Below, piece by piece: positions 5,061 through 63,275 of a stretch of 63,615 nucleotides of DNA. Below the pieces are notes generated by a model that saw only the letters and a list, made by a program, of their open reading frames with translations, had not been told where the DNA came from and made no database searches. Every line of letters starts with the position of its first letter. Position 1 is the first letter of the stretch. A program made the translations under genes and the position numbers. The DNA comes from Chiloscyllium plagiosum (Eukaryota), in NCBI RefSeq assembly GCF_004010195.1, contig NC_057755.1, forward strand, positions 2,749,498 to 2,813,112, read 5' to 3'.

Positions 5061-5403
5061 AGAACTATATTGTTGTTATGGTGCAGACAGCACATTATTA
5101 AAATAATTAGTTTAATATTATCTTTGCAATCAGAATGCAAAGTCTAAAATGCAAAATAAATCAAAGAGCTTCCTCACCTGCTCTACTCCTTATAGTATTA
5201 ATGAAAATTGTCCAATTCAGTTTATGGTCAAGTCTTGCTTCTTTGATATTGATAGAAGTGGATTAACAGAAATGTATCTGAATAGCAAGTGGGATCATTT
5301 GGATTCTTTCTTACTCGGGATGCGCACTGCCAGGCAGGGTTATGACTTTTATAACCTTTGCCACTTTTCACCCCAAGCCTGAACTTCTTTGAATGTTGTC
5401 ATG

Positions 5404-5918
5404 GATTGCTTCAGTGTCTGAGTAGCTGGAAATTATGTTGCACGTGATGCAACCGATTGCTTCAGTGTCTGAGTAGCTGGAAATTATGTTGCACGTGATG
5501 CAACCGATTGCTTCAGTGTCTGAGTAGCTGGAAATTATGTTGCACGTGATGCAACCGATTGCTTCAGTGTCTGAGTAGCTGGAAATTATGTTGCACGTGA
5601 TGCAACCGATTGCTTCAGTGTCTGAGTAGCTGGAAATTATGTTGCACGTGATGCAACCGATTGCTTCAGTGTCTGAGTAGCTGGAAATTATGTTGCACGT
5701 GATGCAACCGATTGCTTCAGTGTCTGAGTAGCTGGAAATTATGTTGCACGTGATGCAACCGATTGCTTCAGTGTCTGAGTAGCTGGAAATTATGTTGCAC
5801 GTGATGCAACCGATTGCTTCAGTGTCTGAGTAGCTGGAAATTATGTTGCACGTGATGCAACCGATTGCTTCAGTGTCTGAGTAGCTGGAAATTATGTTGC
5901 ACGTGATGCAACCGATTG
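5404..5918. repeat. Perfect 51-bp tandem repeat, 10 copies
   Basis: Unit GATTGCTTCAGTGTCTGAGTAGCTGGAAATTATGTTGCACGTGATGCAACC, seen as a 17-aa repeat in ORF 5368..6033. Confidence 0.97.
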
Positions 5919-6699
5919 GGTACACCCACACTTCAGGTCTCATGGTAGATAGAAAATGATTGACCAAACCAAGCGTTGGCCGTGGTGAGGTGTTGGAGAT
6001 GATTGTGAGGAACCCCCATGGAAAAGTTGTCATGCTGAGATGATAGGTTTGTGCGAAGATTTGTAGATGATAGGCTTGTGGTCACCAGAAACATTTCCCT
6101 TTGTGGTATGGATAACTCTAACCAGTGGTTTCAGACTGCATTGAGTTCTGGACCTCTGTGGATCCAGTGGACTCGAACTCAGAGTGTGTTTAGTCAGTTG
6201 TTGCAAATATTTACCTCTTGATATTTTCCTCTTAACTCTCCCAATGTTGGAGCGAAACTGGAGCAGCTTGATTAGCCTCAGGTCTGATTTTGCAGGACAA
6301 ACAGTTCTTGATTTTCTGAAGCATCTCTGACATTAACATCGGTTTTGAATTGATTTTGATTGATTTTATTGTCAAAACAATTCAAAACCCACTTTATTGT
6401 TCGTGATGCTGTAGGAAATCAAGACACTCGGTTCACTGTGCCTACAAAATCATTCATTCCTGTTATGACTGAATACAGAAAGACAAACCCAAACGATGTA
6501 GTGCATGAAAGAGAGGAAAGGCAGACAGGCTCCCGAATCATTTTATATCGTTACTAGAGGAGCAGGACAACCGAAACAGGGAGGGACAGGAAAATGAGTG
6601 AAATACCTATCAGATTTTTAAAATTAATTTGTACTATACTTTACTGTTCTAATCTCAATTGTGTACAATAAATGAATATTATTTTCTGTAAAAGCCGAC

Positions 6700-12000: not shown

Positions 12001-12192
12001 CAAATGTTGTCCCCTTCGCAAGAAGGGGAGTAGAGACAACCCTGGTAATTATGGAGCAGTGAGCCTTACTTCAGTTGTGGGTAAAGTGTTGGGAAGGGTT
12101 ATAAAGAGATAAAATTTATAATCATCGAGAAAGGAATACGTTGATTGGAGATAGTCAATACGGTTTTGTGAAGGGTGCATAGTGCCTCACAA

Positions 12193-12422
12193 GTTGAAAC
12201 TTTATTGCTGGAACAGCACAGCAGGTCAGGCAGCATCCAGGGAACAGGAGATTCGACGTTTCGGGCACAGGCCCTTCTTCAGGAATCAGGATTCCTGAAG
12301 AAGGGCCTGTGCCCGAAACGTCGAATCTCCTGTTCCCTGGATGCTGCCTGACCTGCTGTGCTGTTCCAGCAATAAAGTTTCAACTTTGATCTCCAGCATC
12401 TGCAGACCTCACTTTCTCCTCG
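12193..12422. mobile_element. PLE-derived hairpin-plus-tail mini-element with hammerheads in both polarities; 14-bp TSD
   Basis: Perfect inverted repeat 12193-12384 (95-bp arms, 2-nt loop), then a ~36-nt tail. TSD ATAGTGCCTCACAA at 12179-12192 and 12423-12436. Confidence 0.92.
12290..12327 (+). ncRNA. Minimal type I hammerhead ribozyme motif (mirror copy on the minus strand at 12250-12287)
   Basis: GAUUC-CUGAAGA-A-GGGC(CUGU)GCCC-GAA-ACGU-C-GAAUC: 5-bp helix I, 4-bp helix II, palindromic ACGU in place of helix III. Confidence 0.8.
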
Positions 12423-12462
12423 ATAGTGCCTCACAAACCTTACTGAGTTCTTTGAAATGGTG

Positions 12463-12651
12463 TCTACATTAGAGTGGTTCTGAAAAAGCACAGCAGGTCA
12501 GGCAGCATCCGAGGAGCAAGAAAAGTGACATTTCGGGCAAACGCCCTTCATCAGGATTCTGTTCCTCAGATGCTGCCTGGCCTGCTGTGCTTTTCCAGCA
12601 CCACTCTAATCTAGACTCTTGCTTCCAGCATCTACTATCCTTGTTTTTACC
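12463..12651. mobile_element. Older PLE hairpin-plus-tail mini-element; 14-bp TSD
   Basis: Imperfect inverted repeat AGAGTGG...CCACTCT with a decayed minus-strand CTGATGAAGGGCGTTTGCCCGAAATGTC. TSD TCTTTGAAATGGTG at 12449-12462 and 12652-12665. Confidence 0.85.
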
Positions 12652-13464
12652 TCTTTGAAATGGTGACCAAACAGGTGGATGAGGGTAAAGCGGTTGATGT
12701 GATGTACATGAATTTCAGTAAGGTGGGTGATAAGGTTCACCACGGTAGTCTAGTGCACAAAGTACAAAGATATGGGATTGAGGGTGATTTAGCAATTTGG
12801 ATCAGAAATTGACTAGCTGAAAGAAGACAGAGAGTGGTGGTTGATGGGAAATGTTCATCCTGGAGTTCAGTTGCTGGTGGTGTTCCACAAGGATCTGTTT
12901 TGAGTCCACTGACGTTTGTCATTTCATAAAGGATCTCGACGAGGGCTTGGAAAGATGGGTTAGTAAGTTTGCGGATGGCAGCAAGGCAGTAAGGGTGGTG
13001 GAGTTGTGAATAGTGCCGAAGGATGTTGCAGTTTACTGAGGGACACAGATAAGTTGCAGAGCTGGGCTGAGAGGTGGCAAATGGAGTTTAATGTGGAAAA
13101 GTGTGAGGTGATTCACTTTGGAAGGAGCAACAGGAATAAAGAGTACTGGCTAATGGTAAGTTTTTGGCAGTGTACGTGAGCCAAGAGATCTCAGTGTCCA
13201 TGTAAATAGATTCCTGAAAGTTGTCACCCAGGTTGATAGGGTTGTTAAGGCATGCGGTGTGTTAGCTTTTATTGATAGAGAGATTGAGTTTGGAGCCACG
13301 AGGTCATGCTGCAGAGGTACAAAATTCTGGTGCAGCCTCTCGGAATATTGCATACAGTTATGGTCGCCGCGTAATAGGAAGGATGCGGAAACTTGGGAAG
13401 GAAGGTGTTCAGAGGAATTTACTAGGATGTTGCCTGGTAAGGAGGGAAGGTCTTGTGAGGAAAG

Positions 13465-16190: not shown

Positions 16191-16485
16191 AACAAACTGC
16201 TAACGTGCAGATATACTGAGGAGGAGGTCACGCACGTTTGACCCGGAGAAGGGCGGAGTGAGTGGAATCAAACCGAATGAGAGATAAATCACACACAGCG
16301 TGGAAACAGGCTCTTTGACCCGACCCCATTCGGACTGACCGGATTTCCGGAACTGAACCAGGACCATTTGGCGGTGTTTGGCCCATAGCCCTCTAAATTC
16401 TGGATTAGCGGTGCTGGAAGAGCACAGCAGTTCGGGCAGCATCCGAGGAGCAGTAAAATCGACATTTCGGGCAAAAGCCCTTCAT

Positions 16486-16815
16486 TTTTTTTTATTTCAA
16501 AATATACTTTATTCATAGAATTGTACTTGTACAATTTGTCATGTCGTTCATAGATATATACACTGCATGTCTTAACATTGCAAAGAACAGATTGAATTAC
16601 TCGAATTTACAGTTATTCTATTTACAGTTCCCTTTATTAACCATCCAGTCTCTTATTATTTCGCTGTGGCTTCAGCAGAACCCACCTACGGAGTGGGTGC
16701 CCTGTTATACTATAGCAAATGAACCTTTTTTAATCCCAGTTTATGGGGTTATCGTTGTCCATTTGACTGTCCTGTCTCTGGGGAAGCTGTCTGCATCCCC
16801 ATGGTGAGCACAAAC
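16486..16815 (-). mobile_element. Tx1-type 3' fragment inside the PLE 3' pLTR
   Basis: Starts with TTTTTTTTTATTTCAAAATATACTTTATTCAT, as at 1801 and 45703, and ends in ...WGKTTV-like coding sequence. Confidence 0.7.
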
Positions 16816-19800
16816 TGCTGGGGGGGGGGGGGGGGGGTGGATAGGTGGAAAAGGAGATAGGCAGGTAGGACAGGTCATGGGGACAGGGCTGAGCCGGAAG
16901 TTTGGAACTGGAGTGAGGTAGGGGAAGGGGAAATGAGAAAACTGTTGAAGTCCACATTGATGCCCTGGGGCTGTAGTGTTCCAAGGCAGAAGATGAGGCG
17001 TTCTTCCTTCAGGCGTCTGGTGGTAAGGGAGGAGGCGGTGAAGGAGGCCCAGGACATTCATGTCCTCTGCAGAGTGGGAGGGAGAATTGAAATATTCAGA
17101 CACGTGTGGTTGATTGGTGCGCGTGTCCCAGAGATGTTCCCTAAAGCACTCTGTGAGGAGGTGCCCAGTCTCCCAAATGTAGAGGAGACCGCATTGAGAG
17201 CAACGGATACAATAAATGATATTGGCAGACGTGCAGGTAAAACTTTGGATGTGGAAGGCTCCTTTCAGGCCTCGGATGGAGGTGTGGGCGCAGGTTTTGC
17301 AATTCCTGCGGTGGCAGGGGAAGGTGCCAGGACGGGAGGGTGGGTTGAAGGGAGGTGTGGATCTGACCAGGTAGTCACGGAGGGAAGGGTCTTTGCGGAA
17401 GGCAGAAAGGGGTGCAGAGGGAAATATATCCCTGGTGGTGGGGTTTGTTTGGAGGTGGCGGAAATTATTTGATTTATGCATAGGTTGGTAGGGTGGAAGG
17501 TGAGCACCAGGGGTGTTCTGTCCTTGTTACGGTTGGAGGGGTGGGATCTGAGAGCAGAGGTGTGGGATGTGGATGAGATACGTTGGAGGGCATCTTTAAC
17601 CATGTGGGAAGGGAAATTGCGGTCTCTAAAGGAGGAGGCCATCTGGTATGTTCTGTGGTGGAACTGGTCCTCCTGGGAGCAGAGGCGGAGGAATTGAGAA
17701 TACAGGATGGCATTTTTGCAGGAGGTAGGGTGGGAAGAGGTGTAATCCAGACAGTTGTGGGAGTCGGTGGGTCTGTAAAAAATGTCGGTATCAAGTCGGT
17801 CGTCATTAATGGAGATGGAGAGGTCCAGGAAGGGAAGGGAAGGGAAGTGTCGGAGATGTTCCAGATAAATGTTAAGGTCAGGGTGGAATGTGTTGGTGAA
17901 GTTGATGAATTGCTCAACCTCCTCGCGAGAGCACGAGGTGGCGCCAATGCAGTCATCAATGTCGCAGAGGAAGAGGTGGGGACTGGTGCCGGTGTAATTA
18001 CGGAAGATCGACTGTTCTACATAGTCAAAGAATCAGGCATAGATGGGGCCAATACGGGTGCCCATGGTTACCTCTTTGGTCTGGAGGAAGTGGGAGGATT
18101 CGAAGGAGAAATTGTTAATGGTGAGGAACAGTTCTGCCAAACGAATGAGTGTCGGTGGAAGGGTACTTTTGGGGATGTTGCGAGAGGAAGAAGTGGAGGG
18201 CTTGGAGGCCCTGGTCATGGCGGATGGAAGTGTAGAGGGATTGGATATCCATGGGGAAGATGAGGCGTTGGGGGCCGGGGAAACGGAAGTCTTGGAGGAG
18301 GTGGAGGGTGTGGATGGTGTCTCGAACGTATGTGGTGAGTTCCTGGACTAGGGGGGAAATAGGACAGTGTCGATGTAGGTAGAAATGAGTTCAGTGGGGC
18401 AGGAGCATGCTGAGACAATGGGTCGGCCAGGGTGGTCAGGCTTGTGGATCTTGGGAAGGAGGTAGAACCGGGCAGTGCGGGTTTCCCGGATTATGAGGTT
18501 GGAAGCTGTGGGTGGGAGATCTCCTGAAGTGATGAGGTTCTGTATGGTCCGGGAGATGATGGTTTGGTGATGGGGGGAGTGGGGTCATGGTCGAGGGGGT
18601 GGTAGGAAGAGGTGTCCTCGAGTTGGCGTTTGGCTTCAGCGGTGTAGAGGTCAGTGCGCCAGACTACCACGCGCCTCCTTTATCTGCTGGCTTGATGGGG
18701 AGGTCGGGATTGGAGGGCTGCGCGTTGAGGGTGAGAGTTTGGAGTGGGGGAGGGGAGGTAGGCAGGTTGAGGCTGTTAATGTCCAGGCGGCAGTGGGCAA
18801 TGGAGGTCAAGGGTGGGTAATAGGCCAGCGCGGGGTGTCCAGGTGGATGCAGTGTGTTGGAGGTGGGCGAAGGGGTCCTCCGAAGGTGGACGGGAGTTCT
18901 GATTGTGAAACTAAGCTCGGAGGCGGAGGCAGCGGAAGAAGTGTTCAACATCACGGCATGTACTAAATTCATTGATGCGTGGATGGAGGGGGATGAAGGT
19001 GAGTCCTTTGCTGAGGACTGATTGTTCGTCTTCAGTGAGGGGAAGGTCTGGAGGGATGGTGAAAACTCAGCAGATCTGGGATCTGGTGTAGGTGTGGACC
19101 TGGGAGTGGGGGCGGAACCTGTAACTGAAGTGGGTATGGTGGTGGGGGAAATGGGGATGGAGTCATGAGCAGGAGTGGTGTTCCCCTCAGGGTTCTGGGG
19201 GGCGGGGATGGTGACAGTAGGATCTGTGGGGGAGGTGTGTCAGCAGAATGCAGGTGAGTGGCCTTGTTGGGGTTGGAAGTGGTGGCAAACACAGCAGTGG
19301 GGAGGGGGCGGAAGTCACTGAGCGTGTGACATCAACGATGATGTGAGGGGCAGAAGTGATGTCACGTGTGGTGCACGAGGAATTGTGAGGGGCAGAAGTG
19401 GCTGTGGGAGCGGCCATGATGGGGGCGGACGTGACATCAATCAGTGTGGGGGTGGCAGCTGCACCAGCCGCATGGCTAATGGCGTCCGAGCAGTTCCAGA
19501 GGCCAGGTGAATATACGGGAATGTTTGAGGAGCGCTGGTTATGGAGGTGGATACATAAAAGTTTGTTGTACTTACAGTTTTTGATGTTTGAGATGGAGTT
19601 GAAATACTGTTGAGAGTATGAATTCTCCTGAGGATGTAGTACAGAGTGGGTCCTTTGTAATTGAGAGTGTGGCCCTCAGCTGAGGCAGGACTGACAGTAG
19701 AGAGGTTAGGTGCCGGCGCATTGCTGTGAGCGTGGAATGGAGGATCTTGAAGGAGAACCGTTGCTGGTGTTTTTGAATCTGTAGTCTGTACTGTTTGTCC

Positions 19801-20143
19801 TGTTCGGGTCCGAACTCTGCTGGTTTAAAGGTGGTCCGGAGTCCGTGTGGGATGAGTTGGTTACGAAGGCCGGCACTGAGGAAGCAAATGTGGCTGTGGT
19901 AGTGAGTTTATTTGATTGAAGAGCTTCATGGCAGAGGAAATGACCTAGGAGTGGGAGAGGGACTGCCTGAGATTCTTGTAGAGAGAGGAGGAAAACTTCA
20001 AGGCAGGCATCCTTGCAAGAGGATTTGCACTAAGGTTAAAATCAACGAGGTAAAAACAATGACTGCAGATGCTGGAAACCAGATTCTGGATTAGTGGTGC
20101 TGGAAGAGCACAGCAGTTCAGGCAGCATCCAAAGAGCAGTAAA

Positions 20144-20178
20144 ATTGACGTTTCGGGCAAAAGCCCTTCATCAGGAAT
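20144..20178 (-). ncRNA. Hammerhead ribozyme core in the 5' pLTR of the PLE
   Basis: Minus strand ATTC-CTGATGA-A-GGGC(TTTT)GCCC-GAAACGTC. Helix I is weakened in this copy. Confidence 0.7.
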
Positions 20179-20479
20179 AGAGGCAGAGAGCCTAAAGGGT
20201 GGAGAGATCAGTGAGAGGAGGGTGAGGGTGGGGAGAAAGTAGCATAGAGTACAATAGGTGAGTGGGGGAGGGGATGAAGGTGATAGGTCGGGGGCGGGGG
20301 GGTGAGATGGATAGGTGTAAAAGAAGATAGGCAGGTAGGACAGGTCATGTGGACAGTGCTGAGCTGGAAGTTTGGAACTAGGGTGAGGTGGGGCATGGGG
20401 AAATGAGGAAACTGTTGAAGTCCACATTGATCTGTGAATGTCCCCGTCCGAATGGTGTTGGCACTCGGGGTTAGCGGGA

Positions 20480-22739: not shown

Positions 22740-23392
22740 TTAAGTAGGAGTATACTTAAGAGGGAAATCAGGAGGACACAAAGGGGACATGAGATAGCTT
22801 TGGCAAATAGAATTAAGGAGAATCCAAAAGGTTTTTGCAAATACATTAAGGTCGAAGAGGTAACTAGGGAGAGAATAGGGCCCCTCAAAGATCAGCAAGG
22901 TGGCCTTTGCGTGGAGCCACAGGAGAGGGGGGAGATATTAAATGAGTATTTTGTATCAGTATTTACTGTGGAAAAGGACATGGAATGTAGGGAAATAGAT
23001 GGTGACATCTCGAAAAATGTCCATATTACAGAGGAGTAAGTACGGAATGTCTTGAAATGCATAAGTGGATAAATCCCCAGTACCTGATCAGGTGTACCCA
23101 AAAAGTCTGTGGGAAGCCAGGGAAGTGATTGCTGGGCTTCTTGCGGAGGTATTTGTATCATTGATCGCACAGGTGAGGTGCCAGAAGAATGGAGGTTGCC
23201 TAATTTGGTGCCACTTTTTAAGAAGGGTGGTAAGGACAAGCCAGGGAACAATAGACCAGTGAGCCTGACATTGGTGGTGGGCAAGTAGTAGGAGGGAATG
23301 CGGAGGGCCAGGATGTACATTTATTTGGAAAGGCAATGACTAATTAGGGATTGTCAACATGGCTTAATGCATGGGAAATCACATCTCACAAG
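22740..23392 (+). mobile_element. CR1 ORF2 fragment ending at the HGF...SCLT motif
   Basis: ORFs 22800..23039 (ANRIKENPKGF...) and 23065..23262. Confidence 0.85.
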
Positions 23393-24212
23393 TACAGGCC
23401 CTTCATGGAACCACTCTACTAATAAAGAAAGTTAGACTAATCCAACATAGAACATGACAGTGTAGTACAGGCCCTTTATGGATTCGCTTGGCTAATAACA
23501 GACGTTAGACTAATACAACATAGAGTATTACAGTGCAGTACAGGGCTTTTATGGAACCGCTTGGATAAAGGAAATTAGACTAAGATAACATAGAACATTA
23601 CAGCGCAGTATAACTTTTTATGGAACCGCTTGGCTAATAAAGGAAGTTAGACTAACACAAAATATAGAACATTAGAGTGCAGGCCCTTTTTGCCACCACT
23701 TAGCTAATTATGCCCGTTACACTCAAAGAACATAGAACATTACAGCGCAGTACAGGCCCTTCATGGAACCATTCAGCTAAAAAAGGAAGTTAGACTATTA
23801 CAACATAGAGTATGACAGCGCAGTACATGGCCTTTATGGAACTGCTCGGCTATTAACGGAAGTTAGACTACTACAACATAGAACATTACAGCACAGTACA
23901 GGCCCTTTCTGGCACCGCTCCGCTAATACTCAATGTTAGACTCATAGAATAGAGAACATAATAGGACAATATAGGCCTTTTATGGAACCACTTGGCTAAT
24001 TTTGGATGTTAGATTCATTGTACATAGAACATTACAGCGCAGTACAGGCCCTTTATGGAACTACTGAGCTAATAAAGGAAGTTAGACACATAGACCATGA
24101 CAGCGCAGTACAGGCCCGTAATGGAAACGCTCGTCTAATAAAGGATGTTAGACTCATATAACGCAGAACATTGCAGTGCAGTACAGGCCCTTTATAGAAC
24201 CACTCGGCTAAT
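23392..24212. repeat. Degenerate ~72-bp satellite, about 11-12 copies
   Basis: Consensus CATAGAACATTACAGCGCAGTACAGGCCCTTTATGGAACCACTTGGCTAATAAAGGAAGTTAGACTAATACAA. Confidence 0.9.
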
Positions 24213-26247
24213 AATTGTAAAAAACAAAGCTCACATATCAATAAATTTCTGTTCGAGTCAAATTCTGAAGCAGCGAATTTGATTGAAACATACTTGCAAG
24301 ACGGATGTCTAATGAATAGGCCCCCCGATCGGAGGGTTATATTCTGATTTATGCAGTTCAGCTGCATCTCTCTGTCCTCCCCCTTTACCCCATTGGATAC
24401 TTTTGCTGTAGCACGCAGCCTATCATAAGCTCAAGCTTCACTCCGCTTCTGTTTCCCATTATTCTAAGCCTGTCGCCCCTTACTCTTATTTATCTAATTC
24501 CTTATTTGTGACTATCCTGGCATAGTTTCCTGTCTTCGTGTGATCATCCTGCCAAACTAAATTCCGTCCATTGAGTACATCCCTCCTGCAATTGGCACAC
24601 AATTCTCCTGTTACTGGTACACTCTGATGCATGGTTCCTCTACCCTATTAGTCATTGATAATTCTACCTGTTTTCACTTCTCACTGTTTAGTATTTGCAT
24701 GTGCAGTCCAATTTTATCATGTTGCTTCTGCAAAAGCTTCCACCTCTTTCCTTATGCTGCACAATTTTAACCCTACACTTAACACAGAGGAGAGTGGGCC
24801 CGGTGAGGAGGAGTGTACACCTAGCACAGGGGAGAATGGGCCGGGTGAGAAGGGATGTACACCCAGCACAGGGGAGAGTGGGCCCGGTAAGGGGGAGTGC
24901 ACACCTAGCACGGGGAGAGTGGGCCCAGTGAGCCAGGGTGTACACCCAGCACAGGGGAGAGTGGACCCGGTGAGGGTGAGCGCACACCCAGCACAAGGGA
25001 GAGTGGGCCCGGTGAGGAGGGGTGTACACACAGCACAGGGGAGAGTGGGCCTGGTGAGGAGGGGTGTACACCCAGCACAGGGGAGAGTGGGACCGGTGAG
25101 GGTGAGTGAACAAAAAGCACAGGGGAGTGTGGGCCTCGTGAGGAGGTGTGTACACCCAGCAGAGGGTAGAGTGGATGCAGTGAGGGAGAGTGTACACCCA
25201 GCACAGGGGAGAGCGTGCCTGGTGAGGAAGGGTGTACACCTAGCACAGGGGAGAGTGGGCCCGGTGAGGGGGGAGTGTAAACCCAGCACAGGGGAAGAGT
25301 GGGCCCAGTGAGGGGTGTGTACACCTAGCACAGAGGAGGGGAAGTGTACACCCAGCACAGGGGAGAGTGGGCCTGGTGAGGGGAAGTGTACACCCAGCAC
25401 AGGGGAGAGTGGGCCTGGTGAGGGAGAAAGTTTGCCCAGCACAGGGGAAAGTGGGCCCGGTGTGTGGGAGTGTACACCCAGCAGAGGGGAATGTGGGCCC
25501 TGTGTGGGGGAATGAACACTCAGCACAGAGTAGAGTGGACCCGGTGAGGAAGATTATAACCCAGCACAAGGGTGAGTGGGCCCTGTGAGGAGGGGTGTAT
25601 GCTCAGCACAGGGGAGAGTGGGCCCGGTGAGAGGAAATGTACACCCAGCAGAGGGGAGAGTGGGCCCGGTGAGGAGGAGCGAACACCCAGCTCAAGGGAC
25701 AGTGGGCCCGGTGAGGGGGAGTGTACATCCAGCACAGGGGAGAGTGGGCCCGGTGAGGAGGAGTGTACACCCAGCACAGGCGAGAGTGGGCCCGGTGAGG
25801 GGACATGTATGCCCAGCACAGGGGAGAGTGGGCCCGGTCAGGGGGAGTGAACATCCAGCACAGGGGAAAATGGGCCTAGTGAGGGGGGAGTGTACACCCA
25901 GCACCGGGAGAGTGAGCTCAGTGACGATGAGTATACAACCAGCACAGGATAGAGTGTGCCCGGTGAGGGCAGATTGTACGCCCAGCACAGGGTAGAGTGT
26001 GCCTGATGAAGAGTGTACACCCAGCACAGGGGAGAATGGGCCCGGTGAGGAGGGGTATACACACAGCACAGGGGAGAGTGGGCCTAGTGAGGAGGAGTGT
26101 ACATCCAAACCAGGGGAGTGTGGGCCTGGTGAGGAGGAGTGTAAACCCAGCACAGGGGAGAGTGGGCCCGCTGAGGAGGGGTGTGTGCCCAGTACAGGAG
26201 AGTGTGTGCCTGGTGAGGGAGAGAGTACGACCAGCACAGGGGAAAGT

Positions 26248-26429
26248 TGCGAAAATGTGTTGCTGGAAAAGCGCAGGTCAGGCAGCATCCCAGGAGCAGG
26301 AGAATCGACGTTTCAGGCATGAGCCTTTACGTCGATTCTCCTGCTCCTTGGATGCTGCCTAACCTGCTGCGCTTTTTGAGCAACACATTGTCAGCTCTGA
26401 TCTCCAGCATTTGCAGTCATCACTTTCTC
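26248..26429. mobile_element. PLE hairpin-plus-tail mini-element inserted in the minisatellite; 13-bp TSD
   Basis: Inverted arms AATGTGTTGCT...AGCAACACATT and tail CTGATCTCCAGCATTTGCAGTCATCACTTTCTC. TSD CACAGGGGAAAGT on both sides. Confidence 0.85.
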
Positions 26430-26559
26430 CACAGGGGAAAGTGGGCCCAGTGTGTGGGGCTGTACACCCAGCACAGGGGAGAGTGGGCCCAGTGAGGAGG
26501 GGTGTAAACCCAGCACAGAGGAGAGTGGGCCCGCTGAGAATGGGTGTACGGTGGGAAAG

Positions 26560-26725
26560 TGGTCAAAATGTGTCGCTGAAAAAGCACAGCAGGTCAGGCA
26601 GCATCCAAGGAGTAGGAGAATCGACGTTTCAATTCCTGATGAAGGGCTTTTGCCCGAAACGTCAATTTCGAAGCTCCTTGGATGCTGCCTGAATTGCTGT
26701 GCTCTTCCAGCACCACTAATCCAGA
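26560..26725. mobile_element. PLE pLTR hairpin fragment with a plus-strand hammerhead core (about 26632-26666)
   Basis: ATTCCTGATGAAGGGCTTTTGCCCGAAACGTC preceded by an inverted pLTR segment. Confidence 0.8.
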
Positions 26726-27620
26726 GACAGGGGTGAATGGGCCCATTTAGGAGGTGTGTAGAGCCAGCACAGTGTAGAGTGGGCCTGGTGAGGGGGAGCA
26801 TACACACAGCACAGGGGAGTGTGGGCCCAGTGAGGATGGGTGTACGTCCAGTACAGTGGAGAGTGGGACAGGTGAGGAAGAGTGTACACCTAGCACAGAG
26901 GAGAGTGGGCCCGGGGAGGAGTAGTGTCCACCCAACACAGGGGTGTGTGTGCCCGGTGAGGGGGAGTGTACACCCATCATAGGGAAGAGTATGCCTGATG
27001 AGAGAGAGAGTTCGCCCAGCACAGGGGAAAGTGGGCCCGGTGTGTGGGAGTGTACACACAGCACAGGGGAGAGTGGGCCCGGTGAGGGGTAGTGTACACC
27101 CAGCACAGGGGTGAATGGGCCCGGTGAGGAGGGGTGTACACCCAGCACAGGGGAGTGTGGGCCCGGTGAGGGGGAATGTACACCCAGCACAAAGGAGAGT
27201 GGGCCAGGTTAGGGGGAGTGTACGCTCAGCACAGAGGAGAGGGGCCAGGTTAGGGGGTATGTGCAGCCAGCACAGGGTAGAGTGGGCCCGGTGAGGAGGG
27301 GTATACACCCTGCAGAGGGGTGAATGGGCCCAGTGAGGAGGGGTGTACGCCCAGCACAGGGGTGAGTGGGGGCCGGTGAGGAGGGGTGTACACCCAGCAC
27401 AGGGGAGAGTGGGCCCGGTGAGGAGGGGTGTACACACAGCCCAGGGGAGAGTGGGCCCGGTGAGGAGGGGTGTACACCCGACAGAGAGGTGAATGGAACC
27501 AGTGAGGAGGGGTGTACGCACAGCACAGGGGTGAATGGAACCAGTGAGGAGGGGTGTACGCACAGCACAGGGGAGAGCGGGCCCGGTGAGGAGGGGTGTA
27601 CACACAGCACAGGGGAGAGC

Positions 27621-27730
27621 GGTAAAAGCAATGACTGCAGATGCTGGAAACCAGATTCTGGATCAGTGGTGCTGGAAGAGCACAGCAATTCAGGCAGCAT
27701 CCGAGGACAGGCAAAATCGACATTTCGGGC
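27621..27730 (-). mobile_element. PLE pLTR/tail fragment at the left edge of the homogeneous array
   Basis: Nearly identical to 20049-20158 (GGTAAAA..AATGACTGCAGATGCTGGAAACCAGATTCTGG...TTTCGGGC). Confidence 0.85.
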
Positions 27731-29091
27731 CGGGCCCGGTGAGGAGGGGTGTGCACACGGCACAGGGGAGAGCGGGCCCGGTGAGGAGGGGTGTGCACAC
27801 GGCACAGGGGAGAGCGGGCCCGGTGAGGAGGGGTGTGCACACGGCACAGGGGAGAGCGGGCCCGGTGAGGAGGGGTGTGCACACGGCACAGGGGAGAGCG
27901 GGCCCGGTGAGGAGGGGTGTGCACACGGCACAGGGGAGAGCGGGCCCGGTGAGGAGGGGTGTGCACACGGCACAGGGGAGAGCGGGCCCGGTGAGGAGGG
28001 GTGTGCACACGGCACAGGGGAGAGCGGGCCCGGTGAGGAGGGGTGTGCACACGGCACAGGGGAGAGCGGGCCCGGTGAGGAGGGGTGTGCACACGGCACA
28101 GGGGAGAGCGGGCCCGGTGAGGAGGGGTGTGCACACGGCACAGGGGAGAGCGGGCCCGGTGAGGAGGGGTGTGCACACGGCACAGGGGAGAGCGGGCCCG
28201 GTGAGGAGGGGTGTGCACACGGCACAGGGGAGAGCGGGCCCGGTGAGGAGGGGTGTGCACACGGCACAGGGGAGAGCGGGCCCGGTGAGGAGGGGTGTGC
28301 ACACGGCACAGGGGAGAGCGGGCCCGGTGAGGAGGGGTGTGCACACGGCACAGGGGAGAGCGGGCCCGGTGAGGAGGGGTGTGCACACGGCACAGGGGAG
28401 AGCGGGCCCGGTGAGGAGGGGTGTGCACACGGCACAGGGGAGAGCGGGCCCGGTGAGGAGGGGTGTGCACACGGCACAGGGGAGAGCGGGCCCGGTGAGG
28501 AGGGGTGTGCACACGGCACAGGGGAGAGCGGGCCCGGTGAGGAGGGGTGTGCACACGGCACAGGGGAGAGCGGGCCCGGTGAGGAGGGGTGTGCACACGG
28601 CACAGGGGAGAGCGGGCCCGGTGAGGAGGGGTGTGCACACGGCACAGGGGAGAGCGGGCCCGGTGAGGAGGGGTGTGCACACGGCACAGGGGAGAGCGGG
28701 CCCGGTGAGGAGGGGTGTGCACACGGCACAGGGGAGAGCGGGCCCGGTGAGGAGGGGTGTGCACACGGCACAGGGGAGAGCGGGCCCGGTGAGGAGGGGT
28801 GTGCACACGGCACAGGGGAGAGTGGGCCCGGTGAGGAGGGGTGTGCACACGGCACAGGGGAGAGTGGGCCCGGTGAGGAGGGATGTGCACACGGCACAGG
28901 GGAGAGTGGGCCCGGTGAGGAGGGGCGTGCACACGGCACAGGGGAGAGGGGGCCCGGTGAGGAGGGGTGTGCACACGGCACAGGGGAGAGTGGGCCCGGT
29001 GAGGAGGGGTGTGCACACGGCACAGGGGAGAGTGGGTCCGGCTGAGCCCTGTCCCCGTGACCTGTCCTACCTGCCGATCTTCTTTTCCACC

Positions 29092-29430
29092 TGGAAGGAT
29101 GAAAATAGCACTCACTCCGCTCTTGCCGAAACCACAGGCCATTTCTCGGTTCCGGGTATAAACAGTGAGCGGTGCCGCGCCGCTCGTTCACGCCGAGTCC
29201 GTTAAACGGCCGCGGGCCTCGAGACACCGCGAGCGTCCTTCCCCCCCTTAGGGCGGGCCTTAGCTCCTGTCTAGCTCCGATTGGTCAGAATGCCCGTCAA
29301 TCCCGTGTTTCCATCCAATAGGACGTGAGGCCCCGCCCAGTGACGCAAGGAGGAATCGCTGGAGAAACTCGGCGGGTTTGGGAGCATGTGTGGAGATAAA
29401 GCAAAGGTAACGTTTCAGATTCAATGATAA
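29092..29430 (-). promoter_or_regulatory. CpG-rich Pol II promoter / putative first exon (module B), paralogous to module A
   Basis: On the minus strand: ATTGG (29315-29319), CCAATCGGAG (about 29275-29284), CGCGGCCGTTTAAC, CCGGAA, AAATGGCC (ATG at 29142) and donor GTGAGT (29110-29115). Confidence 0.6.
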
Positions 29431-29699: not shown

Positions 29700-29892
29700 A
29701 TTTAGAGATGGTGGTGTTGGATTGGGGTGTACAAAGTTAAAAATCACCAGGTTACAGTCAAACAGGATTAATTGGAAGTACACTAGCTTTTGGAGCACCA
29801 CAACCACCTGATGAAGGAGCGGAGCTCCGAAAGCTAGTGCTTTCAATTAAACATGTTGGACTATAACCTGGTGTTGTGGGATTTTTAACTTA
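29700..29892. mobile_element. Hairpin-plus-tail mini-element of a second PLE family, with a hammerhead at 29805-29839
   Basis: Inverted arms AAGTTAAAAATC..CCAGGTTA / TAACCTGG..GATTTTTAACTT. Motif CAC-CTGATGA-A-GGAGC(GGA)GCTCC-GAA-AGCT-A-GTG. A related pLTR remnant lies at about 44980-45060. Confidence 0.8.
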
Positions 29893-29913: not shown

Positions 29914-31340
29914 GGGCAGGAGGCTGGAAGGACACAGCAAGCCGGGCAGCATCAGGAGGTGGAAAAGGCAGCTTTTCAGGTATAACCCTTCTTCAGGGCT
30001 GGGGGCAGGGTGTTGGGGAAGGGGAGCTTCAGATAAAGGGTGGGTGGTGAGATGGGCGGAGTGGGTAAGTAGTGACCACAAATGGAGGGTACGGCCTGTT
30101 TGGTTGATGGGAGGAATGAATCCAGTCGGCAGCTGGAAGGCAGGCTCGGTCAGAGATATGGAAGGGAAGAGGAGGGTGCTGGAAAGGGAATCGGGGGATG
30201 GGCTTGGAGGTTATTTGAAATTAGAGAACTCAATGTTAAGTCCTCCTGGCGTTTGGCTGCTCGGGCGGAAGATGAGGTGCAGTTCCTCCACTTTGCAGTC
30301 TGATCCGCTGTGGCAATGGGCGAGGCCAAGGATGGTCAAGCTGTAGATGAAATTGGAAGGTGAATTGTAGTGGGCAGTGAGTGGGAGTTCAAGTTGGTCC
30401 TTGTTGGTCTGACTGAGAGGCTCGGCAAAACGTGCCTTTCGTTTACATTTGGTCTCATTGATACAGAGAAGACCATATTGGCAGCACTGGATACAGGAAA
30501 CTAGGTTGGAGGAGAGGCAGATGAACCTCTCATCTGGAAGGACTATTTGGGGCCCTGGATGGAGATGAGGAGTAGGGTAATGTGCCGGCAGGTTTAGCAT
30601 CTTTTACGGTTGCAGGGGTTCAGGAAAATTCCTCACTCCACTGCTCGAAACACATTTCCCCCTTACCCAAAAAGCAACAAGACGGGGTCTCCCTTGTCCT
30701 CACCTTCCACCTCACCACTCTCTGTATCCAATACATCATCCTTCAACACTTCCACCAACTCCATCTAGACCCCACCACCAAGAATATCTTCCACTCCACA
30801 CCTCTGTCTGCCTTTCGCAAGGACCATTCCCTTCGACAGTTCTTGGTTTCTGCCACTCTCGCCACTAACACCCCAAATCCCTGGTACCTTCCCCTGCAAC
30901 AGTAAGAGATGCAAAGTCTGCTGGCACACCACCCACCTCATCTCTATCCAGGGCCCTGAACGGTCCTGCCTGGGACAGAGGTTCACCTACCTCTCGTCCA
31001 ACCTAGTTTACTGTATCTGGTGCTCCTGATGTAGTCTTCTCTACATTGGTGAGACCAAAAGTAAACTAAGGGTATATTTCACTGAACATCTCAGCCAGGC
31101 CCACAAGGGCTGACCTGACCGCCCAATCACCGCTCACTACAATTTCCCATTCCCTCTTTGACATGACCCTCCTCTGTTGCCACAGTGAATCAGACCACAA
31201 CATCTCATCTTCCGCCTGGGCAGCCTACACCCTTAAGGACTCAACATTGAGTTCTGCAACTTCAAATGACCTCTTTTCCCATCCTGACTCTCTTTCTAGC
31301 CATTCCTCCTCGTTTTCCTTCTTCTGACTGACCTTTCCTT
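29914..31340. mobile_element. Two inverted PLE 3' fragments (minus about 29914-30620, plus about 30625-31340), GIY-YIG region
   Basis: ORF 30211..30600 (FICLSSNLVSCIQC...EELHLIFR) and ORF 30582..30905 (LVLTFH...PLSAFRKDHSLRQFLV). Confidence 0.8.
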
Positions 31341-33070: not shown

Positions 33071-33262
33071 TTTCCCCTACATTTCTAATTAATTTGGACC
33101 CCTCCTTCTCTCCCCAACACATCACCTGCCTCACCTTTCTTAAACATTGCCCTCAACAGGCCTTGTTTGGTCATATACACATTTCTTGATGGTTGAAAAA
33201 AATGTAATAAAGTCTATTCACAAAGGTGTATTTCTTTCAGTCCCACAATACTCTCTATGAGT

Positions 33263-33795
33263 CTATGGGTGGTGTGCTGGAAAAGCACAGCTGGTCAGGC
33301 AGTTGTGGAGCAGGAGGAGAATTGACGTTTCAACCAAGTGCTCTTCATCAGGAATGAGACTTGTGGGCCAGGGAGCTGAGAGATAAATGGGAGGGGGTGG
33401 TTGCTGCCGGGATAGTAGATAAGATTGCGATAGGTAGATGAAGGTGCGGTTGGACATGATGGTCGGAAGGAGGATGAATTGGATGGGTGGGAAGGAAGGA
33501 AGGAAGATGGACAGATAGGACCAGACAAGGGGGTGGTGCTAATTTGGAGGCATGGGAGTAGGATAAGGTGGGAGGAGTGGAAATGAGGAAATTAGTGAAA
33601 TCCACATTGATCCTGTGCATGGTTCCAAGGCGGAAGGTAAGGCATTCTTCCTCGAGACATTAGGTGGTGAGGATTTGGTGCGGGTGTCCCAGAGATGTTC
33701 TCTGAAATAATCTGCAAGTTTGCATCCTGTCTCCCTGAGGTAGAGGAGACCAAAGGATACAGTAGTTAACGTGTGTGGAAATACAGGTAAATTTC
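33263..33795 (-). mobile_element. PLE 3' fragment with pLTR and decayed hammerhead
   Basis: INVDFTNFLIS as in the 16.9 kb PLE; minus-strand CCTGATGAAGAGCACTTGGTTGAAACGTC. Confidence 0.75.
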
Positions 33796-38112: not shown

Positions 38113-40864
38113 ATGCATCTTCTAAGGGAAAAGATCGATATAATGTACGATCACATCCTTGTCATTGTTGGTGTTCCTGGTAAGCCTTGTAACAGCTTTA
38201 ACATATGTAGATGTCTGCAGGGAATCATCCTTATTGCTACCGACAATATATTTCCATTCAGCAAAGCAAATACCGATGCCATGTGACAGCGTGCTCACTT
38301 ACTGAGTTCAAAGAAAATAGTTGTTTGATTAGGAGGTTCCTCAATAATGTGCAGCATTGTCCGTTTCTCTATAATGTGCAGAAAGGGTTTGCCCTGATAC
38401 CACACTGATCGGGTTTGGCTGAGCACCGGCCCTGGATGGTCTCGAAAGTTTCGAGCAAGACCACTCTCTCTCTGTTGGAGTACAAAGCCTGCTATCAGTC
38501 AGATGGGTCTTGTAATAACCCACTTCTCAGTGACACCTGGTGTTTTCCAATACTTAATGTGAAGGGATTGTGTTGGTGGATCTTTTAAAGGGAGGTTGCT
38601 TCAAATGGGAGATCAGATACAACATGATCAATGAGTGGGATGAGCAGGTCATTAGGAATGATAAGCAAGGGTCAGTACAAAATGGTTTGACCATCTTGGG
38701 TGATGTCACCAGCCAGTGGATATGCAGGGGCATGATTTGTGAGGACAAGTCACGGAGAGGGGTGTTAAACAAAGGGTTCCAATTACGATATTTATTGCTC
38801 AGTTGTGTGATTGTGCCATTTGTAAAATGATACACGCTACTGTGGTGCAGAGTTTCATAGAACAAACGCTGGCAGCAGCTCTCCCACAGAGGATCAAGCA
38901 CCATTGTCCAACAGGATATTTCCCACCCTGCCCTTTGTTGCTGTTACCCTTTGATGTTCCCCAAACAATAATGGTCTCTGTAAAAATTCTCTTGTCTGCC
39001 TTCATTTGGGATTAGTATTTTGAGTTTGGCTATGAATTTCTATATGCTTTTACTCATGTGTCATGCAAGGCTATGGTACAATGGAGAATGCTGTTTAAAC
39101 CATGGGGATTCCTCCTCCACAAAGCTACGAATGTGGGAGCGGAAACTCAGTTTACAAGGAGACGGTTTAGGAGAGGAACTTGGCAGTATGAACCTGGAAA
39201 TCCTGTTGGAAGCTTTGCTTCATCACAGATAAAGTGTCTGATTTCTGGATGGAACCTGTGGTGTACAGTCTTGGACAAGCAGGGAATTCTGCGTCGAATA
39301 TTGAAGTTCTAAGGATTGCAGTGGATATCCAACCTGGCACATAATGATTGGATTCACTGCTGATTACCTACATGGTTCAGACTGTCAGGATATTTAATCC
39401 TGTGCACAAGGGAGGGATTCAATATCTTATCATGTGCGGAGGATATCCATTCCGAGACACTGTGGAGTGATTAAATGTCCTGTACTGTTGTTCATACAGT
39501 GTGGATATACAACTCTAGGGGCAATCTGAACTGTGGATACTCCAAAACCGAATATAGAAATTTTGTAATCAATGTCCATGTTGGTGTCTCCTGTCCTTTG
39601 TTTTACTGATCCCAAGTGTTGCATGTATGTTGTGGTCTTATGGGAAACTCCAGCCAATCTGAGTAATGTATAAAACAGGGGAAATTAAATGCTATCAATC
39701 TAAAAAATAATTGAGTCCATGACATGTTTCTGGGGGCAATCTGCTTCTCATGTTATTCTTCTCATGTTTTAAAAGTGCAAATGATTCATTTATAGTGAGT
39801 TTGTTGCTGTGGTTCATATTCGTTAAACTTCATATGACATGGGACGACAACTATCTTTGTACCAGTGTGTACAGTCTGGGCTCAGCAAAGGAGAATGTTT
39901 GATCAGTAACTCCAAATCTCTTTTTTTTTCCTTTCCCTCTCTTACAGTTAGTCTAGTGATGATTGCAGTCCTGGCTTGGGGCAAGTGTGGTCTTTCTACA
40001 TGTAGCACTCGCTATCTGGTGGTCATGGCAACGTCTGATCTATTTTTCATTGTGTTTTGTATCATCCTTCAGCGATTTCGCTCTTATTATTATCCACTGT
40101 GTTTCCTGGACATCACTCCTGTTTGTAGTGTTATCTCGGCCCTGAACCGCTTGTCCATTGATTGTTCTGTCTGGTTCACTGCTGCTTTTTCCTTCGATCG
40201 ATTTGTTGCCATTTGTTTTCATCAGATGAAACTTGGGTATTGCACAGAGAAAACTGCAAGAAAGGTTCTAGCAACAATCTTTATTTTCTTTTCTTTAAAG
40301 AATGCTCCCAACTACTTTGTATATAAACCTGGAAAGATCATCAACAATATTCCATGGTACTGTTCTATCAGGTCCAGCTATTTTTCTGAACGTCGGTGGG
40401 CAAGTTTTAAATATTTTGAGACTTTTTTAACACCAATGTTCCCATTCACTTTTATTCTCTTTATCAACATTCTGACTGTCAGACACATCTTCGAGGGCAT
40501 TAAGGTACGTAAGGAACTGAGGGGTCAGAGAAAAATACAGAATGACCCAGAGACAAAAAGCAGAAAGAATTCTATGATTTTACTCTTTGTCATATCTGCC
40601 AGCTTCATCCTTCTCTGGTTATTGTATGTTTTATATTTCTTTAATGCTGGTTATTCCTTGAAAAAGGCTGCTTTCCGTCTCTTTAAACAAGTTGCGTATA
40701 TGCTGCGGAACCTCAGTTGCTGCACAAACGCATTTATTTATGTGGTGACACAGAGAAATTTCAGAGACCAGTTTAAGTATGCAATGAAATATCCAGTTAT
40801 AAAAATAATTCAATTGATGAATAAATCCAAGCAATTGAGAGCCAACATTAGCTGCAGCAGATAA
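38113..40864 (+). CDS. Two-exon class A GPCR, GPR139/GPR142-related shark-expanded family; exon 1 38113-38179, exon 2 39948-40864, 327 aa
   Basis: Exon 1 MHLLREKIDIMYDHILVIVGVP+G then GTAAGC. Pyrimidine tract and TTACAG precede exon 2, phase 1 and in frame. Seven hydrophobic segments with GKCGLS, RYLVVMATSDL, FSFDRFVAIC, DPETKSRKNS and SCCTNAFIY. Confidence 0.9.
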
Positions 40865-56600: not shown

Positions 56601-56814
56601 TTAATTTAGATAAATGTGAGTTACTGCATTTTGGAAAGGCTAATTATGGCAGGACTTATGTACTTAATGGGAAGGTCCTGGGGAGTGTTGCTGAACAAAG
56701 AGACCTTGGAATACACATTCATAGATGTTTGAAAATGGAGTCACAGGTAGATAGCATCGTGAAGAAGGTGTTTGGTATTTGATTAATCTTTATATTTAAG
56801 CTTTATTATCATGT

Positions 56815-57040
56815 GTTGAAACTTTATTGCTGGAACAGCACAGCAGGTCAGGCAGCATCCAGGGAACAGGAGATTCGACGTTTCGGGCACAGGCCCTTCT
56901 TCAGGAATCATTCCTGAAGAAGGGCCTGTGCCCGAAACGTCGAATCTCCTGTTCCCTGGATGCTGCCTGACCTGCTGTGCTGTTCCAGCAATAAAGTTTC
57001 AACTTTGATCTCCAGCATCTGCAGACCTCACTTTCTCCCC
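56815..57040. mobile_element. PLE-derived hairpin-plus-tail mini-element, near-identical to 12193-12422; 12-14 bp TSD
   Basis: Perfect inverted repeat 56815-57003 (94-bp arms, 1-nt loop) and the same tail. TSD TTATTATCATGT(GT) at 56803 and 57041. Confidence 0.92.
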
Positions 57041-57729
57041 TTATTATCATGTGTCCACAAGTACAGAAGTACAGGAGTGCAGTGAAAAGTGTTTAATGTT
57101 ATCAAGTACGGCACCATCTTTGGTATAAAGGTACCTTGGTGCAAAACTGAGGTACAAGTAGTAACACAGACACAAAATCAAAAACAAAGCATCCCCATTG
57201 ATCTTATTGTAAGTAGAAAAATCAAGAAATGAAGTTAAATGTTAACATTACAGTCGTCCGTATTGTTAAATGGCAAAATATTGAAATAAAGGTAAATGTT
57301 GTAGTCTGGCATTTATTGACATGAATGTTCCCTGCAGACTTTCTTAAGGGCATTTCCTGTGAGGGTTTAATCCCCACCATTTTGGCCCACTCTCTGGGAA
57401 ATCTCTGTCTTCCCACTCTCGATGTCACAGATGCCTCCCTTATCAATACTTCGGGCTTGCTCTGGCCTTGTTAGCCTCAGACCCACAGCCACTTCCATGC
57501 ACCAGACATCCAGCTGGCACTCCTCAGGAGCCCGTCTCCTGCCACACTTCCCACGATACCATCGTCACTGTTGCCTCTCTGCAGAACTTCAGAGGGTAAG
57601 GAAAAAGAAATGACCAGAATCAGAGAAAAGATAAAAATGTGGCCAGCCTAGAGTGGACGGCCGAACATGCTCCCACCATCTTCAAAAGCTCACTCATTGT
57701 GTCCTCCACACTGCCGGGGAATGCTTACC

Positions 57730-61312: not shown

Positions 61313-61459
61313 TGGACCAACTTTCCTCATTCCTGAAGAAGGGCTAATGCCCGAAACGTCGATTCTCCTGTTCCCTAGATGCTGCCTGACCTGCTGCGCT
61401 TTTCCAGCAACACATTTCCATCTCTGATCTCCAGCATCTGCAGACCTCACTTTCTCCTC

Positions 61460-63275
61460 ACAACTTCATCAGTGAGCCTCAGGTAAAGTGCTGGCGTTAT
61501 GTCCCACTTTCTATTTATGTATCTTGTTTCTTAGGGCGAGTGCTACCTCTTCCGGTTCATTTCCACAGATGATGGTATATGGACTCCAAGTCGATGTGTT
61601 AATTACTAGAGTTCTGGTTAGAATTCCATGCACCTCAGAATTCTCGTGCATGTCACTGTTTAGGTTGCCCTCGGATGGTTGTGCTGTCGCAGGCAAAATG
61701 GTGCCCTGCTTCACCTGTATAAAAAGATACTAGTGATAGTGGGTCATGTCTTTTTGTGGCTAGTAGACGTTCATGTATCTTGGTGGCTAGTTTTCTGCCT
61801 GTTTGTCTAATGTAGTTTTTGTTACATTCCCTGCATAGTATTTTGTAAGTTACATTCATTTTGCTTGTTGTTCTGGTTGTAAGTTTGCTCGCTGAGCTGG
61901 AAGCTTTGTTTTCAGATGTTTCGTCACCATCATCCTTGAGTTTCCAGTGAATCATTGGTGTTACAACTAACAAAATGAATGCCACTTACAAGTATCATGC
62001 AGGGAGTGTAACAAACACTACCTCAGACAAACACGCAGGAACCTAGCCATCGGGATACATGAACACCAATGAGCCACAAATAGATAAAAAGATACTCGTG
62101 ATAGTGGGTCATATTTTTTGTGGCTTGTTGTTGTTCATGCATCCTGGTAGCTAGTTTTCTGCCTGTTTGTTTGATATAGTTTTTGTTACAGTCCCTGTTG
62201 TTCTTGGTTATAAGTTTGCTTGCTGAATTGGAAGGTTTGTTTTCAGATGTTTCGTTACCATTCTGGGTAACTTCATCAGTGAGCCTCAGGTAAAGTGCTG
62301 GCGTTATGTCCCACTTTCTATTTATGTATCTTTTTTCTTAGGGCGAGTGCTACCTCTTCCGGTTCATTCCCACAGATGATGGTATATGGACTCCAAGTCG
62401 ATGTTTTAATTACTAGAGTTCTGGTTAGAATTCCATGCACCTCAGAATTCTCGTGTATATCACTGTTTAGATTGTCCTCGGATGGATGTGCTGTCGCAGG
62501 CAAAATGGTGCCCTGCTTCACCTGTATAAAAAGATACTAGTGATAGTGGGTCATGTCTTTTAGTGGCTAGTTGACGTTCATGTATCTTGGTGGCTAGTTT
62601 TCTGCCTGTTTGTCTAATGTAGTTTTTGTTACATTCCCTGCATAGTATTTTGTAAGTTACATTCATTTTGCTTGTTGTTCTGGTTGTAAGTTTGATCGCT
62701 GAGCTGGAAGCTTTGTTTTCAGATGTTTCGTCACCATCATCCTTGAGTTTCCAGTGAATCGTTGGTGTTACAACTAACAAAATGAATGCCACTTACAAAT
62801 ATCATGCAGGGAGTGTCACAAACACTCCCTCAGACAAACACGCAGGAACCTAGCCATCGGGATACATGAACACCAATGAGCCACAAATAGATATGACGTA
62901 CTATCGCTAGTATGTTTTCATACAGGTGAAGCAGGACACCACTTTGACTGGGACAACACATCCATCCTAGTACAAGCTAAACAGAGACACACATTAGAAT
63001 TCCTGGAGGCATGGCATTCTAACTGGAACTCCATCAATTAACACATCGATTTGAACCCCATCTACCATCCTCTAAGAGAAAAAAAGAACCAGGAATGATA
63101 TCACTCATCCTAAGAAACCAAGAAATATAAATAGAAAGTGGGACATAACACCAGCACTTCACCGGACACTCACTGATGATGTTACCATGTATGGTGATAA
63201 AATGTCTGACAACACACCTTATTGCTCAGCGAGCAACCTTAGAACCAGATGCTCAACCTGAGCTACAAATCTTCT
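61460..63275. mobile_element. Third PLE family: GIY-YIG fragments in both orientations with an ~807-bp-period duplication; hammerhead at 62243-62282 (minus)
   Basis: ORFs 61653..61985 and 62460..62792 (NVTYKILCRECNKNYIRQTGRKLATKIHE) are near-identical. Motif TCA-CTGATGA-A-GTTACC(CAGAAT)GGTAAC-GAAACATC-TGA. Confidence 0.85.

Follow-up and report, generated by a model that had tools for sequence, protein, structure and literature searches.

Two young hairpins in a Chiloscyllium plagiosum contig are miniature Penelope-like element insertions of the inverted-copy-plus-tail type

The window, the whole stretch of 63,615 nucleotides of Chiloscyllium plagiosum DNA that was analysed, contains two hairpins that are real, very young, miniature insertions of a Penelope-like element (PLE), of the published "inverted copy plus tail" type. 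We consider it probable (roughly 0.7) that each is a very short PLE-end insertion made anew at its site, through two reverse transcription events that start from the nicks of a staggered cut and are followed by head-to-head joining. Copy 1 (12193-12422) has perfect arms of 97 bp at 12191-12287 and 12290-12386, the outer 2 bp being common to the target duplication, and copy 2 (56815-57040) has perfect arms of 94 bp at 56815-56908 and 56910-57003. Between the copies, there are no mismatches over the 94 nt of the left arm and none over the 129 nt of the right arm and tail; the sole differences are 3 nt at the centre and the last 2-3 tail bases. These figures confirm the initial annotation, which had described two copies with perfect arms of about 95 bp, an AATAAA (12371-12376 in copy 1, 56990-56995 in copy 2) and a tail of about 36 nt, and the youth that it ascribed to both is supported. 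The whole unit spans 226-230 bp and contains no ORF in either copy, and its RNA is predicted to form a single rod (-202.9 kcal/mol) from which a tail of loose structure extends. The coordinates of the hairpins and of related features are collected in Table 1.

Table 1 Coordinates, strands and characteristics of the hairpins and related features in the window
Feature	Position	Strand	Remarks
Copy 1, left target-site duplication	12179-12192	.	14 bp, within CR1-type LINE RT remnant
Copy 1, inverted arm (tailless PLE end module with hammerhead)	12193-12287	-	Core start 12282, minus strand
Copy 1, loop AG	12288-12289	.	Centre GGAAT-CAGG-ATTCC
Copy 1, sense arm	12290-12384	+	Stem I 12290-12294; core CUGAAGA 12295-12301; stem II 12303-12314; GAAA 12315-12318
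Copy 1, unpaired tail, PLE 3' extension	12385-12422	+	36-38 nt
Copy 1, right target-site duplication	12423-12436	.	
Older hairpin with tail, of the hairpin family of copies 1 and 2	12463-12651	+	14-bp duplication; hammerhead in left arm, absent from right
Decayed PLE body (RT, thumb, cysteine linker, GIY-YIG)	16399-18252	-	Related end module at 16399-16485
End module, subfamily B	20045-20440	-	Continuous with PLE 3' region 89% identical to 16820-16961
Older hairpin with tail in 42-bp satellite	26248-26429	+	13-bp duplication; left arm to module position 11, right starts at 28
Head-to-head pair, left arm subfamily A, right arm subfamily B	26561-26727	+	No clean duplication found
Related end module downstream of GIY-YIG-region remnant	33262-33751	-	tblastn, P0002 residues 282-321; arm identity 73%
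Copy 2, left target-site duplication	56803-56816	.	Last 2 bases also belong to arm
Copy 2	56815-57040	+	Loop C56909; tail 57004-57040
Copy 2, right target-site duplication	57041-57054	.	
Non-inverted single arm with tail	61329-61459	+	90% identical to young copies

The flanks support the earlier claim that the two copies inserted independently, since their target duplications differ: copy 1 lies between copies of ATAGTGCCTCACAA (14 bp), and copy 2 between copies of TTATTATCATGTGT (14 bp, or 12 bp with the arm taken at full length). As in EN+ PLE insertions, both young copies have a target-site duplication without a poly(A) tract. None of 300 random flank pairs, drawn with tandem-repeat regions and N excluded, reached a 13-bp duplication, and the maximum was 10 bp. 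When copy 1, the neighbouring insertion and one copy of each duplication were excised, the frame of a CR1-type RT was restored, colinear with an in-window paralogue except for one stop codon. This CR1-type remnant (12179-12667) holds two independent hairpin insertions of differing age, with 12 bp between their duplications. Long perfect inverted arms with a target duplication also resemble a MITE, yet a MITE-like DNA-level element, a segmental duplication or an assembly artefact would be a most improbable source of these copies: the tail is one-sided, the flanks are unrelated, the duplications differ and the sequence is that of a PLE end module. Such sources are further opposed by the tail-to-flank junction of copy 2 (joint 57039-57041), which recurs, shortened by one base, among the contigs of two public sequencing runs, both from an elasmobranch that we call organism A. 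Since this junction occurs in both runs, the copy 2 insertion is probably not private; no contig spanned the locus and no empty site was seen.

Judged by sequence similarity, the hairpin arm is the end module of a PLE. Relatives of the module, 73-85% identical to the arm, adjoin PLE 3' regions at 20045-20440 and 33262-33751, and a decayed PLE body at 16.9-18.25 kb has RT and GIY-YIG regions. The domain assignment was taken from homologues of the decayed in-window frames; a Pfam search of the frames themselves gave no recognised domain. The homologues comprised 72 matches, including elasmobranch proteins from Chiloscyllium, Stegostoma and Amblyraja, and many carry PF26215, while GIY-YIG was seen in two of the four scanned, in one of them above the curated cut-off. 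The adjoining modules and the domains of the homologues support the PLE origin that had been proposed from the letters alone. As in EN+ PLEs, the hairpins derive from the end module (pLTR) of an element with RT and GIY-YIG and consist of an inverted, 5'-truncated copy with a one-sided tail. In the frame at 16741-17526, a C-x4-C-x2-C stretch precedes GIY-YIG; a cysteine-rich linker between RT and GIY-YIG is what we take to mark the Neptune clade, to which the source PLE probably belongs. No autonomous parent PLE identical to the young end module was found in the window, where the copy nearest to that module is the non-inverted arm with tail at 61329-61459. A PLE RT fragment 79% identical to the window remnant (P0054) carries the species name Proteus mirabilis; its contig is 474 bases long, and the fragment is probably animal DNA contaminating a bacterial assembly.

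Sixteen arms in the window were tabulated in module coordinates, in which 1 is the first base of ATTCC, the cut falls after 32 and the tail ends at 129; a seventeenth arm, at 20085, served as the reference. Eight of the 16 outer ends lay at module positions 85-99, seven at 129-132 and one elsewhere, and the shorter end (85-99) occurred on inverted arms as well as on the non-hairpin copies at 16399 and 33262. The tail end was also fixed in three genomic runs with diverse flanks, where loose ends at 57038/57039 occurred in 342+202, 380+215 and 376+180 contigs (agreement 0.34-0.36). Inner ends fell at -2 to 3 in six of the 16 arms, including all four arms of the young copies; another two extended only as far as the reference itself, and the rest scattered from 8 to 64. 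All five head-to-head junctions in the window were different, the young two by only 3 nt.

In the older hairpins at 12463-12651 and 26248-26429, the inverted arm holds bases absent from the tailed arm, and the tailed arm holds the tail. The pair at 26561-26727 is a chimera: its left arm matches an A copy at 59 of 63 positions versus 51 of 61 for a B copy, and its right arm matches B at 63 of 69 versus 50 of 67 for A. This pair would be direct evidence for two templates per insertion if a clean duplication could be shown. A long 42-bp satellite (24741-29300) contains PLE end-module insertions at 26248, 26561 and 27621, all at about the same unit position, which suggests a preferred target or co-amplification.

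We propose that each hairpin was formed at its own site. Observation establishes how the hairpins are built, their target duplications, both fixed 3' ends and a connection between the end module and PLE RT and GIY-YIG remnants. The two fixed 3' points, found on 15 of the 16 arms, fit the two start sites of Penelope reverse transcription, which bracket the tail. In two of the three older hairpins, the extra bases of the inverted arm and the tail of the tailed arm mean that one folded-back cDNA cannot supply both. According to PMC11167929, a purified lizard PLE protein acts on both strands, which it cuts and extends; it is predicted to be dimeric, begins reverse transcription at two sites bracketing the tail and works in vitro without hammerhead cleavage; that element is of the Poseidon clade, another clade than the source of the young hairpins. 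Each older hairpin in the window has its own junction, which supports what the initial annotation had offered as its alternative, namely that every copy arose separately from an active PLE.

The protein involved, Penelope-like and probably of the Neptune clade, would prime from both nicks of a 14-bp staggered cut and yield two short cDNAs, one per start site, that stop near the front edge of the hammerhead; their growing ends would then be joined head to head. The simplest idea for the stop is a template RNA that would start at this front edge, 32 nt upstream of the cut. The loops suggest that the young template read CCTG just upstream of ATTCC, although the older copy at 61329 has CCTC. With such a template, the inverted cDNA would have overrun the edge by 4 nt in copy 1 and by 1 nt in copy 2, and this overrun would also yield the 5-bp stem I of copy 1. 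The products would likely be dead ends, whose predicted 95-bp duplex hides the hammerhead and may be ADAR-edited when read through. Several findings speak against formation anew: all four young arms stop within 4 nt of one point, which a shared master hairpin with a 3-nt loop deletion also fits; the asymmetry of the older hairpins could stem from later deletions; and the chimeric pair, lying in a satellite without a clean duplication, could have been made by recombination.

Formation at each site could also proceed by fold-back, in which a single cDNA primes itself and is copied back on itself. The perfectly identical arms of the young copies and their loops of 1-4 nt are what self-priming would give, and PMC3846280 reads palindromes at the inverted junctions of rotifer Penelope elements in this way. 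Without later deletion, however, fold-back cannot make the hairpins at 12463-12651 or 26248-26429, nor can it make the two-subfamily pair at 26561-26727. It also leaves the end of the inverted arm unexplained, since the non-inverted copies at 16399 and 33262 use the same 3' end. We regard fold-back as unlikely, and it remains the main mechanistic rival to priming from two nicks.

The right arm carries a minimal hammerhead, CUGAAGA-A-GGGC(CUGU)GCCC-GAAA-CG-UC, with a stem I of 4-5 bp and a predicted cut site after C12322, the position named in the initial annotation. Its conserved core, stems I and II, extra base 9/10.1, G-C pair 10.1-11.1 and palindromic 15.2-16.2 are those of a PLE minimal hammerhead, including all four features given for this class in PMC4209133. 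An Rfam search gave no hammerhead match at E<=1. The only Rfam match on the element, to mir-4662, scored 56.9 bits against a gathering score of 97 and was discounted as reflecting a generic microRNA hairpin. When the arm is folded on its own, its minimum-energy structure includes the hammerhead stems but is not more stable than those of shuffles (z about -1), and energy-based co-folding of two arms, a procedure that does not model the hammerhead core, gave no clean dimer hammerhead. The same source (PMC4209133) reports that a single minimal hammerhead motif gives no cleavage, and that dual motifs 100-700 bp apart on opposite strands are already known in PLEs.

In the whole element, there is one core per strand, located 3' of its own perfect antisense arm, and the two cores lie about 10 bp apart in the perfect palindrome. 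The hammerhead occurs on both strands because the palindrome mirrors one motif. For each of the four combinations of copy and strand, 59-61 kcal/mol are needed to impose its stems, and the hammerhead is predicted to be shut because folding it on either strand costs about 60 kcal/mol. The initial claim of hammerheads in both polarities thus holds for the motif, which is present on each strand, and fails for two working ribozymes. A viroid-like RNA with ribozymes in both polarities has two different ones, and each can fold within the strand that carries it. Here, a single mirrored motif would have to pay +59 to +61 kcal/mol on either strand, and the hairpin element is predicted not to act like a two-polarity ribozyme RNA.

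Other hammerhead-bearing sequences occur in the window. More hammerhead-like cores, belonging to other PLE-type families, lie at 29808 (+) and 29996 (-) and point towards one another from either side of an assembly gap; GIY-YIG remnants in inverted arrangement are located nearby (30268-31239). Another repeat family, unrelated to that of the hairpins, occupies 61462-63250 and directly abuts the 61329 copy; it too bears a hammerhead, has segments in direct and inverted orientation (97% and 79% identity) and looks to us like another PLE clade.

The young copies could instead descend from a non-autonomous master hairpin, whose RNA, retrozyme-like and with ribozymes in both polarities, would be retroposed whole by the PLE machinery. 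Such a master would account for the absence of substitutions over 223 nt, for the identical outer and inner limits of two independent insertions and for the expansion of the young subfamily in organism A, and it explains the loops, which differ by a single 3-nt indel, as well as the overrun does. We nevertheless judge it improbable, more so than fold-back. The RT would need to traverse a duplex of about -200 kcal/mol, the antisense arm would be transcribed first and the hammerhead would cost about 60 kcal/mol on either strand. Moreover, the 5' end of the RNA would have to coincide with a site at which other copies have their 3' end, the two young loci show no tandem arrangement, and no junction is shared among the three older hairpins. 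The retrozyme-like rod with two working ribozymes that had initially been put forward therefore finds no support in the cost of the fold, the differing junctions in the window and the lack of tandem organisation. A bolder version holds that the young subfamily spreads as a protein-free 230-nt rod retroposed whole, that its mirrored hammerhead is opened by the PLE protein, and that thousands of ADAR-edited dsRNA hairpins feed back on the parent; this we consider a long shot.

To describe the family beyond the window, one arm of copy 2 with its flank, in a reference starting at the loop, was overlaid with four of 24 listed sequencing runs: two contig runs of organism A, one contig run of a relative (organism B) and one poly(A) single-cell RNA run of organism A. 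Contigs matching at 88% identity or more numbered 24,740 and 32,414 in organism A and 20,635 in organism B. Records that spanned the loop junction ran past the end of the reference (493, 908, 196 and 458 of them); the joints listed (15 of 31) and the rows with intervening letters listed (12 of 32) include no symmetric loop, which carries no information on the junctions. The summed depth at 56993, in a segment typical of the young subfamily, was 570,296 and 1,206,726 in organism A versus 6,536 in organism B, of whose run 64% was read. The young subfamily is thus far more abundant in organism A than in its relative, and this difference in depth indicates that it expanded in the lineage of A. Depth itself is no copy number, and we give only a rough figure of thousands to about a hundred thousand copies. 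Head-to-tail joints were also seen, one from 57038 to 56910 with eight letters between (depth 84.5 and 50.7 in the two organism A runs) and one from 57038 to 56958 (depth 968, organism B); they may reflect short tandem, retrozyme-like arrays elsewhere in these genomes. A circular template derived from the joint of 57038 to 56910 was rejected for copy 1, as the spacer letters do not match the loop. Exact-pattern scans of metagenome, viral and prokaryote-genome contigs gave zero matches, as expected for a vertebrate repeat, a result with no bearing on the hairpins.

The RNA run contained 1,968 family records among 12.96 million, 174 of them at 99% identity or more, and both strands were represented. 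In 92% of the reads, the family sequence gives way to sequence unlike it, as would be the case if it were carried passively within host transcripts, and there was no pile-up of ends in this fragmented poly(A) library, which cannot reveal cleavage. A>G differences were listed at 14 RNA places versus 3, 3 and 2 in the contig runs, and the other nine kinds were similar. Among the places listed, this excess amounts to 14 of 60 versus 8 of 131 (Fisher p=0.001; p=0.018 against one run alone). At 56993, G was found in 42 of 300 reads of likely sense orientation versus 3 of 151 in the opposite one, and in less than 0.1% of contig depth. T>C, expected from the antisense arm, was not raised in RNA (10 versus 8-10), which argues against editing. 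The counts combine reads from the whole family, DNA and RNA come from different samples, contigs drop rare variants and the listing of places stops 31 rows short, leaving out most of the 14 from inspection, so that the A>G excess is a hint of ADAR editing. The suggestion that the hairpins serve as a dsRNA source accordingly gains a weak hint from the RNA-only A>G excess and none from T>C. Published work describes massive editing of lizard Penelope and editing of palindromic frog repeats (PMC5625713), as well as small RNAs against Penelope (PMC3846280).

Beyond PLE sequences, the window contains an open frame of 345 codons (39827-40864, +) that matches the rhodopsin-family 7TM receptors (PF00001, E 3e-17). 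A U2 snRNA gene or pseudogene (2556-2746, -; 156.5 bits) adjoins a retroelement ORF1 remnant with ZCCHC3-type domains (1076-1798). Two tandem arrays were observed: a 51-bp array with a perfectly identical core (5302-6015) and a diverged 73-bp array (23366-24213).

Overall, the hairpins follow a mostly ordinary, already published insertion pattern, in which both the inverted end with a tail and opposite-strand hammerheads are known. No earlier description of this hairpin family was found in the literature searched, a scope without Repbase/Dfam and most subscription journals. The value of the family lies in its material: near-identical short copies, pairs whose arms come from two subfamilies and an abrupt end at the edge of the hammerhead, in which junction counts would separate two-nick priming, fold-back and master copying. 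In L1 twin priming, cDNA synthesis likewise starts at both nicks, and the resulting pieces, which do not overlap, are joined as an inversion. In the hairpins, by contrast, both primers would copy the same stretch, giving a palindrome.

The closest known counterparts are EN+ PLE insertion units, which PMC8557442 and PMC3846280 describe as an inverted, 5'-truncated pLTR with a one-sided tail of 30-40 bp and a target duplication. The hairpins share with them the head-to-head inverted end modules, the one-sided tail of about 36 nt, the target duplication and the hammerhead in the module. They differ in that the young hairpins have no ORF and that their two arms match in extent to within 4 nt, reaching no further than the hammerhead edge. 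Target duplications of the hairpins in the window measure 13-14 bp, against 8-10 bp in the elements described from rotifers. PMC8557442 still calls undefined the process by which PLEs acquire inverted ends and a one-sided tail. The hammerhead resembles those of metazoan PLEs (PMC4209133) in the extra base before stem II, G10.1-C11.1, the palindromic 15.2-16.2, the missing stem III and the 4-5-bp stem I, and the dual motifs of that source differ in their far wider spacing.

Similarly, the hairpins are protein-free, PLE-derived and equipped with a type-I hammerhead, like the non-LTR retrozymes of 10.64898/2026.07.22.740005. Those retrozymes are tandem direct repeats with at least two hammerheads of the same polarity, whereas both young loci hold a single inverted pair with one core per strand. 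Finally, the palindromic Harbinger repeats of frogs, as presented in PMC5625713, are repeats of about 200 bp that, like the hairpins, form ready-made dsRNA; they are edited, whereas for the hairpins editing is a hint from pooled family reads. If this hint holds, the hairpins could be a large endogenous source of dsRNA in an elasmobranch, comparable to that of the frog repeats.
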